Virus record (IMG/VR): IMGVR_UViG_3300037067_009230
Location: 12,156-76,155 of that record
From: a virus
Taxonomy: Duplodnaviria > Caudoviricetes
DNA length: 64,000 bases
Direction: 5' to 3' (one strand)
Shown: positions 8,632-12,557 of the stretch, piece after piece
Numbering within the stretch: the stretch's first letter is position 1
Layout of the letters: each line of letters begins with the position of its first letter
Position numbers and translations under genes: made by a program
The notes under the pieces: generated by a model
What the model was told of the DNA's origin: nothing
What the model saw: the letters and a program-made list of their open reading frames with translations, nothing else
Databases searched by the model: none

Positions 8632-9111
8632 ATGTCAAATTTTACTACCAAAGATTCTAAAGAACATAAAACATTTTCCACAGGAATGCAAAGAGACACT
8701 GATTCTGATAAACCCAGATTTGATCTTATTACACCGGAACAGATCCCTTATAGTGAACAGATGCTCACCAGATGGGCCAGCCGTATGACCATGGGAGCAA
8801 AGAAATATGATCAACGTAACTGGGAGAAAGCAGAGACTACTGAGGAACTAAACCGCTTCATTAACTCTGCATTTCGTCATTTCATGCAGTGGCTTTGTGG
8901 AGAAGTAGATGAGGACCATGCATCAGCTGTATTCTTTAATATTCAGGGAGCTGAATATGTGAAGTATAAATTATCCCATAATAAACATCTTATCACAACT
9001 GATGAAGATGATGTATGCTTTACTTGTGTAAGAAATAAAATTACCGCTCTAAGTGATAAAGAGATTGAAGAAGTCCAATTATGTAAATCTTGTGTACACG
9101 ATAAGAAATAG
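8632..9111 (+). CDS. dATP/dGTP diphosphohydrolase-domain protein (DUF5664-like)
   Basis: GMQRD..DKPRFDLI, GAKKYDQRNWEK, SAFRHF..W..GEVDEDH motifs. Confidence 0.8.
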   Translation: MSNFTTKDSKEHKTFSTGMQRDTDSDKPRFDLITPEQIPYSEQMLTRWASRMTMGAKKYDQRNWEKAETTEELNRFINSAFRHFMQWLCGEVDEDHASAVFFNIQGAEYVKYKLSHNKHLITTDEDDVCFTCVRNKITALSDKEIEEVQLCKSCVHDKK

Positions 9112-10718: not shown

Positions 10719-10869
10719 AAACTTTAAACTTTCTGTATGATGCATTCACAAAGAATTAAAAAAGATAAACCACCTAAGTTACCGCCTAATACAGAGTTTA
10801 AACTTAACTTAGTAACTCTTGTAAAATTTATTATATCTATCAAGAAATTCTTACATAAACAGAAAAATC

Positions 10870-11664
10870 ATGTGCTTCAAAAAACCAAACTTTATTTTCA
10901 CAGAACCATTTGACTTCAGATTAATATCTGCTACCATCAATGATTATCCGGGTAGTATGAATGATCTCCGTGGGTGTAACAATGACGGTAGGCTTGTTAA
11001 AGATACCGTTCTATCTTATAAATACAATGCTGATGTTCTCAGGCTTATTGATTCTCAGGCTACTGTATCTGCTGTTACTAATGCTATTAGCAGTGCTATA
11101 TCCCTACTTAAACCGGGAGCCATAGTGTGTATATTGGCTGATTCATGTTTTTCAGGTGATATTACCAGACTTATGATGAATTTCATGGGTAGTATTCCTA
11201 CACCTGAAAATTATAAGAGAAACAGATTTTATCAAACTCCGGGAGTCGTTCCTACGGTTAATTATCCACTCTTTCATAAATCAGGTGATATTCGTTGGAT
11301 AGCAATGGGTGGATGTGGCAAAGTAGCTTACAGTGCTGATGCTTATATCAATGGGGATTATTATGGAGCATTTACTTACTATGCCATGAACTCACTCCGT
11401 TTTGATATGACTTATAGGCAGTGGTATGAAGCGATTAAAAAATATCTTCCAAGTAGTTTATTTGAACAAGATCCTACATTTATGGGACCGGATGATTTAC
11501 TTGACTCAATAATTGGCTACAGGCAGACTCTATGGATTCATAATAGCAGCCACGGTACCCAACTTAACGGAACAAACGGGGATTCTGTAGATGAAGCTAT
11601 TTGTTTGTATGATGGCAATCTCAGAGATAAGGTGTATTATAATATCTTAAATAAGTTAAAATAG
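10870..11664 (+). CDS. Metacaspase/peptidase C14 family protein with rearranged catalytic His segment
   Basis: INDYPG...LRGCNND, ILADSCFSG (Cys93), SADAYING.YYGAFTY, QDP, and C-terminal HNSSHGTQ (His228)...DEAICLYD. Confidence 0.85.
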   Translation: MCFKKPNFIFTEPFDFRLISATINDYPGSMNDLRGCNNDGRLVKDTVLSYKYNADVLRLIDSQATVSAVTNAISSAISLLKPGAIVCILADSCFSGDITRLMMNFMGSIPTPENYKRNRFYQTPGVVPTVNYPLFHKSGDIRWIAMGGCGKVAYSADAYINGDYYGAFTYYAMNSLRFDMTYRQWYEAIKKYLPSSLFEQDPTFMGPDDLLDSIIGYRQTLWIHNSSHGTQLNGTNGDSVDEAICLYDGNLRDKVYYNILNKLK

Positions 11665-11669
11665 AGATT

Positions 11670-11891
11670 ATGAAAAATATTATAGTCATCTTGGAAAAGT
11701 CAGAAGACAATTATTCAGCATATATTCCTGCATTAGATGGATGTGTAGCCACAGGTGATACATTTCATCAAGTTAAGCAGAGAATTGAAGAAGCTGTGGA
11801 GTTTCATCTTGACGGAATGAAAGAAGAGGGGTTAGATATTCCTGAATTATTTCAAAGTGATTATGATTTCGTTTATAAAATCGAAGAATAA
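11670..11891 (+). CDS. hicB: HicB-family antitoxin (orphan)
   Basis: EKSEDNYSAYIPALDGCVATGDT...IEEAVEFHLDGMKEEGLDIP. No hicA nearby. Confidence 0.85.
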   Translation: MKNIIVILEKSEDNYSAYIPALDGCVATGDTFHQVKQRIEEAVEFHLDGMKEEGLDIPELFQSDYDFVYKIEE

Positions 11892-12092: not shown

Positions 12093-12557
12093 ATGAAAAA
12101 GTACTTTTTAATTTTATCTTTTGCCCTACTTACATTAGTAGGATCAGCTCAGGTAAGTAATCTATTTAAACCAATAGATAATGTTCTACTGGTTAGCAAT
12201 AACAGATCTCTTGTTAACAATAGAGGTATTCTGGATAATGTAGCTATGAGATTGAATGTGGGAGTGACTACTACCCAGAGTACTTATGTAAACACTGAAG
12301 ATAAGTTATTTGATAGTCATCCTATGGCTGCTGTTGGATTCGGCTTTGGTTTGCAGCACTATGTAGCCAGACCCAATGGAGAATTATTTAATGACTACGG
12401 AGCTAATCTACTTCTGCTTGTACCCACTGGTGTTGAAGGTTCAAAGGGTATGGGAGTGGGCTTATTTGGGAATGTAGATAAGTTCCAGCTTGGTGTGGAT
12501 TACAATTTCACATTAAAGAAAGTTAGTTTAGATACCGGGATAACACTTAAATTTTAA
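12093..12557 (+). CDS. Exported outer-membrane beta-barrel-like protein
   Basis: Sec signal peptide, alternating beta-strand pattern and C-terminal Phe (GITLKF). Confidence 0.6.
   Translation: MKKYFLILSFALLTLVGSAQVSNLFKPIDNVLLVSNNRSLVNNRGILDNVAMRLNVGVTTTQSTYVNTEDKLFDSHPMAAVGFGFGLQHYVARPNGELFNDYGANLLLLVPTGVEGSKGMGVGLFGNVDKFQLGVDYNFTLKKVSLDTGITLKF

Follow-up and report, generated by a model that had tools for sequence, protein, structure and literature searches.

A phage-borne metacaspase-like protein family in which the catalytic Cys precedes the catalytic His

The locus

The window analysed in this work is a stretch of 64,000 nucleotides (positions 12,156 to 76,155) of the IMG/VR virus record IMGVR_UViG_3300037067_009230. 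The record is 76,155 bp long, has a completeness estimate of 92%, and carries genes for a portal protein, a terminase, SbcC-like and Dda-like proteins and a family A DNA polymerase. It contains a single match to the Pfam profile PF00656, the ORF at 10870..11664 on the plus strand, which sits among small genes of the same strand:

8632-9111, plus strand: protein with a dGTP/dATP diphosphohydrolase N-domain (PF18909), upstream of the protease gene
between the PF18909 gene and the protease gene, same strand: YopX protein
10737-10913, plus strand: small ORF of 58 aa, ending 44 nt inside the start of the protease gene, in another frame
10870..11664, plus strand: permuted C14 metacaspase-like protease, 264 aa and stop (ORF, PF00656, homologues, fold match)
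11670-11891, plus strand: HicB-like/UPF0150 protein, 73 aa (PF15919, E 1.5e-09; phrog_497)

The PF18909 protein is also encoded upstream of the protease in the contig of the closest relative (L005, 2060-2416), and the early-gene block is thus syntenic within this subclade; no gene context common to the window phage and its crAss-like relatives is conserved. The 58-aa ORF encodes a basic, amphipathic peptide ('...PPKLPP..FKLNLVTLVKFIISIKKFLHKQK...') with a homologue in the L005 contig (4880-5035), and three related proteins (P0152, P0279 and P0285) carry this peptide as an in-frame fusion ahead of the 'MCxKK' of the protease. It is a conserved leader ORF or an optional N-terminal extension, possibly supplying a partner or leader peptide.

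The HicB-like gene starts 6 nt past the stop codon of the protease gene. We noticed no HicA among the ORFs adjoining it. A toxin–antitoxin pairing of the HicB-like protein with the protease was considered and dropped, since no HicB-like gene was found adjoining the protease homologues in other phages.

Gene layout

The protease gene can be divided into the following parts, all on the plus strand:

10870..10884: N-terminal 'MCFKK', with M1 and C2 near-invariant in alignments A1 and A2
10915..11118: unmoved N-terminal part, with β1 (16-22), α1, β2 (55-60) and α2 (66-78) assigned by DSSP in the AlphaFold2 (AF2) model
11119..11157: Cys strand (canonical β4; strand 85-90 in the model) and D91-S92-C93-F-S-G
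11158..11295: variable post-Cys loop, at the position of the canonical L4/inter-subunit linker, with a conserved basic R119-F120
11296..11484: p10-like part, with strands 144-147, 156-160, 163-166 and 203-205 and helices 167-175 and 182-189
11485..11526: connector, residues 206-219 ('GPDDLLDSIIGYRQ'), the counterpart of the tail with which canonical relatives end; junction 2 is at its end
11527..11661: relocated His block, residues ~220-264 (pLDDT 84-93 in AF2)

Within the phage clade, proteins of either topology have a near-invariant 'M-C-x-K-K' N-terminus, which is absent from more distant bacterial relatives. C2 is present in 117 of the 127 permuted proteins, and the 'MCFKK' at the ORF start agrees with the N-terminus of the homologues. 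The first ten residues are modelled with moderate confidence (pLDDT about 70), and 'MCFKK' may serve an Arg/Lys protease as a Lys-containing pseudo-substrate or as a site of processing. In the unmoved part, the α1 motif G35-C36-x-N38-D39, in which G35, C36 and D39 are invariant or near-invariant, aligns to 'GCIND' of AtMC9. This part ends with 'LKPG' (G83), which is junction 1, and the Cys strand that follows leads to Cys93 (codon 11146-11148).

After Cys93 comes the only stretch of low confidence in the AF2 model (residues 95-112, pLDDT <50), and then residue 119, which is Arg in 121 and Lys in 6 of the 127 permuted proteins. The p10-like part has the SGC..(Q)TSAD motif of the metacaspase p10 region, here 'GGCG..YSADAYI' with C149 and D157 (D157 and G166 are invariant). 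Residues 147-160 read GGCGKVAYSADAYI, against a family consensus 'SGCGExQTSADAYING', and the region aligns to residues 189-259 of 3bij and 246-276 of AtMC9. Canonical proteins stop at the connector ('...LFTNIVFT'), whereas the permuted proteins run on into the His block. This block is formed by strand 220-226 (canonical β3), S226-S-H228-G229 (His228 codon 11551-11553), a hairpin (229-233/240-246), the 'DEAI' strand, strand 249-252 and helix 253-260 (canonical α3).

The chain order is Cys before His

The sequence-only reading had proposed that the catalytic His segment of this metacaspase lies behind the catalytic Cys, in a clean reading frame. The translation confirms both points, as the ORF is open over its 264 codons, 'LLKPG' (to G83) runs straight into 'AIVCILADSC' (Cys93), joining α2 to the Cys strand, and 'TLWIHNSSHG...DEAICLYDG...' (His228) forms the C-terminus. 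The window protein departs from the usual chain order of C14, in which His follows β3 and comes before the Cys that follows β4.

Profile and sequence comparisons gave the same picture. PF00656 scored 28.5 bits over a cut-off of 21.4 and covered residues 23-76 only (54 residues). Searched against the PDB with phmmer, the protein matched 3bij out of order, with residues 220-262 on 3bij 76-121 (the His segment) and residues 128-204 on 3bij 189-259, while residues 25-61 aligned to the start of AtMC9. A profile built from 77 permuted homologues matched Yca1, 3bij, AtMC4 and TbMCA2 with E values of 5e-23 to 9e-15 and the same out-of-order pattern, with positions 213-265 on 3bij 70-122 and 139-204 on Yca1 271-337; the relocated block also aligned to residues 168-216 of the TbMCA2 chain. 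The order is N-C-B instead of N-B-C, that is, two adjacent segments have been transposed and there is no circular permutation of the whole chain. This distinction had already been drawn from the sequence, and it is now supported by homologues, canonical relatives, two structure predictions and conservation of the dyad.

Homologues in independent assemblies

A search of 5.8 billion proteins returned 873 matches; most of the best 120 of these cover the entire query. From the best 120 or 150 matches of each search we collected 374 homologue clusters at 90% identity and classified them by motif: His precedes Cys in 226 and Cys precedes His in 131, which answers the call of the sequence-only reading for homologues with the same order. 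In any metagenomic virus record, such an order could a priori result from misassembly, a frameshift in the gene or a chimeric contig. Here the identical order recurs in 131 clusters drawn from JGI, ENA, Logan and NCBI assemblies that are independent of one another, the frame is clean and the full-length alignments have conserved junctions, and we regard misassembly or chance as excluded, with a residual probability close to nil.

Both dyad motifs are present in 119 of the best 120 unfiltered matches, the exception being one fragment of 160 aa. They are kept in all full-length permuted proteins among those collected, and the divergent permuted members outside the motif pattern ('MDNC') also keep both Cys and His.

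The permuted form is essentially a phage protein, since among 185,579 cellular species genomes it was found on two short MAG contigs only (L009 and L010), the remaining matches being canonical, and its ESM Atlas neighbours come from Uroviricota and Bacteroidota. Annotation resources hardly register it. We obtained no tblastn match in the INPHARED phage GenBank records, no PHROGs family for the window protein or the canonical relative P0100, no NCBIfam match for the window protein, and no full-length structural match in BFVD, where the best hits were giant-virus caspases with a TM of about 0.49. Where the sources give the permuted proteins any name, it is 'hypothetical protein'. With Pfam covering 54 residues and NCBIfam and PHROGs nothing, phage metacaspases are under-counted. 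An anti-defence function had been put forward for the protein from its sequence; it found no backing in PADLOC, which gave nothing for the window protein and one weak generic 'caspase' match for canonical P0100.

Canonical sisters and the history of the permutation

Relatives with the canonical order share 33-43% local BLASTP identity with the window protein and carry 'GDxLLIHYSGHG...DEAxYLYDG...DDDI..L..IPDG' between α2 and the Cys strand. The most informative comparison is that of P0078 (permuted) with P0100 (canonical), whose cores are 65% identical. In BLASTP they align with a single gap of 51 residues directly before the Cys strand, and a second match places P0078 212-261 on P0100 88-137. 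The His blocks of the permuted and canonical forms align end to end. P0100 itself matches PF00656 with 97.1 bits over profile positions 2-224 of 233. The two forms also occupy the same locus in crAss-like phages: the genes of permuted P0083 and canonical P0118 each lie two small genes upstream of CrAss_Ring_2 - x - CrAss_Ring_1 - MUZ, with a DUF5675 or M15 endolysin gene on the other side, and the P0078 gene is in the same kind of slot.

Trees were built from concatenated core and block alignments. With FastTree (241 proteins), 126 of 127 permuted proteins fall in one pure group and two state changes are needed. The IQ-TREE phylogeny (63 rows) needs five state changes, its deep branches are weak and its well-supported branches force only one; a single permuted clade is not rejected by the AU test (delta lnL 1.96, p 0.449). 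Because the canonical order prevails in the wider superfamily and in the outgroup rows, the permuted order is most likely the derived one, on a tree that is weakly resolved as to the number and direction of events. It probably goes back to one event or a few in a canonical phage metacaspase, and purifying selection has probably preserved it in many phages, crAss-like ones among them.

At the DNA level, the rearrangement could most simply have proceeded through a partial tandem duplication of the stretch reaching from the block to the 3΄ end (N-B-C-B-C), followed by loss of the distal C and the internal B. This route predicts an N-B-C-B intermediate, and a His block on both sides was seen in none of the 374 proteins collected from the best 120 or 150 matches per search.

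Predicted structure

The AF2 model of the window protein, run with 77 permuted sequences and no templates, is a single domain predicted with confidence (pLDDT 84.4, pTM 0.85), and an independent model was obtained from the ESM Atlas (pTM 0.84). In the permuted model the elements are strand 16-22, helix 36-50, strand 55-60, helix 66-78 and strand 85-90, continuing to strand 203-205 and helix 208-211, and then strands 220-226, 229-233, 240-246 and 249-252 and helix 253-260. The model of canonical P0100 (pLDDT 90.5) has strand 21-27, helix 41-55, strand 59-65 and helix 71-83 up to the block, the block itself (strands 90-96, 98-103, 113-119 and 122-125, helix 126-133), and then strand 141-147 through to strand 253-255 and helix 258-261. 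Both models of the permuted protein contain the same elements as the P0100 model, with the block of four strands and a helix shifted as one unit.

The window protein has the caspase/haemoglobinase fold over residues 12-218, according to Foldseek (probability 1.00 to AtMC9, AtMC4 and 3bij) and VIA-align. In the latter, the permuted model aligns to metacaspases with Z 15-18 (best 6w8t, Z 18.0, rmsd 3.3 Å, 182 residues over the range 15-217) and the structural alignment spans residues about 12-218 only, while the canonical P0100 control gives Z 26.7, rmsd 3.2 Å and 235 residues over the range 19-267. The roughly 50 residues fewer in the permuted model correspond to the block, which a sequential aligner is unable to place; likewise, the ESM Atlas structure matches stop at residue 215-219.

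Where does the block go? The sheet order of metacaspases is 2-1-3-4-... (PMC4357240). As the core superposes on 2-1-3-4 sheets and 220-226 is the sole confident strand left unaligned, the models indicate that this strand most likely fills the β3 slot between β1 and the Cys strand. From the fold match and the otherwise empty β3 slot, His228 is predicted to pack against Cys93. A bias of AlphaFold in favour of the family fold is conceivable. Mean-field DCA, on 130 permuted sequences or on 344 sequences in total, mostly picked up gap and indel artefacts from the variable loops and gave no usable contacts between block and core.

We consider it probable that the window protein is a phage cysteine protease of metacaspase type (MEROPS C14B-like) whose caspase/haemoglobinase fold has been permuted naturally and in a non-circular way, with its block docked in cis, and that is predicted to be active. 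The unit formed by β3, the catalytic His, the L3 hairpin, the DEAI strand and α3 has left its place between α2 and β4 and now stands after the former C-terminal tail. In three dimensions this C-terminal block would fill its old slot, flanked by β1 and the Cys strand, bringing His228 opposite Cys93 and beside an S1 pocket made of C36, D39, D91 and S226, with cleavage after Arg or Lys.

The block could also be exchanged between chains. Terminal self-contained units are typical domain-swap elements, and this one is attached through a 14-residue connector at the end of the chain. The His block of one protomer would then enter the empty β3 slot of a second one, and the active site would form only on dimerisation or oligomerisation. 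By analogy, this might provide a built-in activation switch with a logic like that of dimerisation-driven caspase activation, and caspases and paracaspases are indeed activated as dimers (PMC4357240). We find a domain-swapped oligomer unlikely, because the AF2 and ESM models of the monomer are confident and compact without a partner and metacaspases with an eight-stranded sheet are monomeric (PMC4357240).

Catalytic residues and predicted activity

By sequence and by its conserved catalytic His and Cys, the window protein belongs to C14. Alignment A2 (77 permuted rows) shows no substitution at G35, C36, D91, C93, S95, D157, G166, S226, H228, G229 or D253, and a conservation of at least 90% at D39. 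The invariance of His and Cys in A2 is partly circular, owing to the motif filter; the unfiltered counts of the best 120 matches given above are independent of that filter. The mean identity among permuted proteins is 52% in the block versus 47% in the core, which argues that the block is no decaying remnant, since decay would give the opposite.

These observations bear on whether the rewiring might have broken catalysis, leaving a pseudo-protease or binding module that acts as a scaffold or decoy, for example for a host partner containing Arg/Lys. Bacterial pseudo-orthocaspases and dyad-substituted metacaspases are common (PMC3501461, PMC6426788). The known pseudo-variants, however, have lost His or Cys, whereas even permuted proteins of about 30-36% identity retain His, Cys, Gly229 and the residues of the pocket, and the block is more conserved than the core, and we judge this explanation to be quite improbable. 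The sequence-only reading had called the protein possibly active, and conservation of the dyad in the permuted proteins is consistent with a protease that is possibly still so.

In TbMCA2, the S1 pocket is formed by Cys92 and Asp95 on α1, Ser156 on L3 and Asp211 on L4 (PMC4357240). The window protein has equivalents of all four by motif position, with no residue-level superposition behind the equivalence: C36 and D39 in the 'GCNND' motif of α1, S226 two residues before His228, and D91 two residues before Cys93. As these pocket residues are kept, Arg/Lys specificity is predicted and, judged from its sequence, the protein is most likely an active Arg/Lys-specific protease with rewired connectivity. 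TbMCA2 also has a four-Asp Ca site (PMC4357240). In the subclade of the window protein itself, the L3 hairpin is shortened.

Metacaspases autoprocess in the loop region after Cys (PMC4357240). By analogy, the post-Cys loop with its conserved R119/K is a candidate autoprocessing region, and autoprocessing there would leave Cys and His on different chains. The relocation might be functional and not neutral: a His cassette held on a flexible C-terminal tether would allow the active site to be assembled on demand, through docking of the tail in cis, a swap in trans into a partner or cleavage of the post-Cys loop, and would give the phage a timing switch. We consider such a switch rather unlikely.

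Comparison with known systems

The permuted proteins share their fold and size with the canonical relatives (P0100, P0118; 3bij GSU0716, 6w8r AtMC4, 8a53 AtMC9, 4f6o Yca1, 4af8 TbMCA2), as well as the S-x-H-G, D-x-C and G-C-x-N-D helix motifs and the p10-type 'SGC..QTSADA'. Unlike them, they have Cys first and then His, and the β3-L3-α3 unit stands after the p10-like part and not before β4, so that the canonical links α2-to-β3 and α3-to-β4 are replaced by α2-to-β4 and C-tail-to-β3.

MEROPS gives the dyad order of clan CD as His then Cys. In every clan CD peptidase structure compared in PMC4357240, His comes after one strand and Cys after the next. In the literature on metacaspase permutation and on phage and crAss-like caspases and metacaspases we found no description of a Cys-before-His order. 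The nearest case is that of the type III metacaspases of phytoplankton, in which p10 stands before an intact p20, an arrangement discussed as a circular-permutation-type event (PMC3734836). Like them, the window family has undergone a natural reordering of segments inside the C14 metacaspase domain. In type III enzymes, however, His still precedes Cys on a contiguous p20, whereas here p20 is split and only its His-bearing third moves; the window protein is not of type III, since its p10-like region (143-205) is flanked by the Cys strand on one side and the His block on the other, instead of standing N-terminal to an intact p20. According to the citation of Srinivasula et al. 1998 in PMC3734836, engineered 'reverse' caspase-3 and -6 stay active with their segments re-ordered. 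Those constructs are artificial and have the small subunit ahead of the large one, with the His-Cys order unchanged.

The variant described here is genuine and widely spread among phages; it differs in topology from the rest of a well-known protease family and is probably active as far as its sequences tell. It forms a large natural family that has the dyad in the opposite chain order, with a fold predicted to be unchanged. To our knowledge, a catalytic element is rarely displaced by a non-circular permutation, and such cases are difficult to document. In this case the canonical sisters, with up to 65% core identity and a shared crAss-like phage locus, are close enough for the event to be reconstructed, and the permuted and canonical pair offers a natural test of the effects of connectivity on folding, activation and autoprocessing in the caspase fold.

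Gene context in related phages

What could be the role of the protease in these phages? In four contexts of differing types (crAss-like phages and a Mu_F/portal_3 phage), the gene immediately upstream of the C14 gene encodes a DUF5675 protein:

L001, 5543-5998: DUF5675 gene
L006, 1636-2034: DUF5675 gene
L007, 3579-3998: DUF5675 gene
P0078 contig: DUF5675 gene

The same upstream position is taken by a Peptidase_M15_3 endolysin in L003 and L004 and by an Amidase_3 protein in the P0053 contig, and DUF5675 may be a lysis-related partner. No conserved downstream partner gene of the protease was found in the related phages. The upstream cell-wall hydrolase and DUF5675 genes, together with the leader ORF and the hydrophobic tails of some members, hint at a late, envelope- or lysis-linked role of the protease; in the window phage, the protease gene is not adjacent to a lysin.

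Long hydrophobic, TM-like C-terminal extensions are present in P0324, which is canonical, and in P0244, which is permuted, and their sequences suggest membrane anchoring in some lineages.
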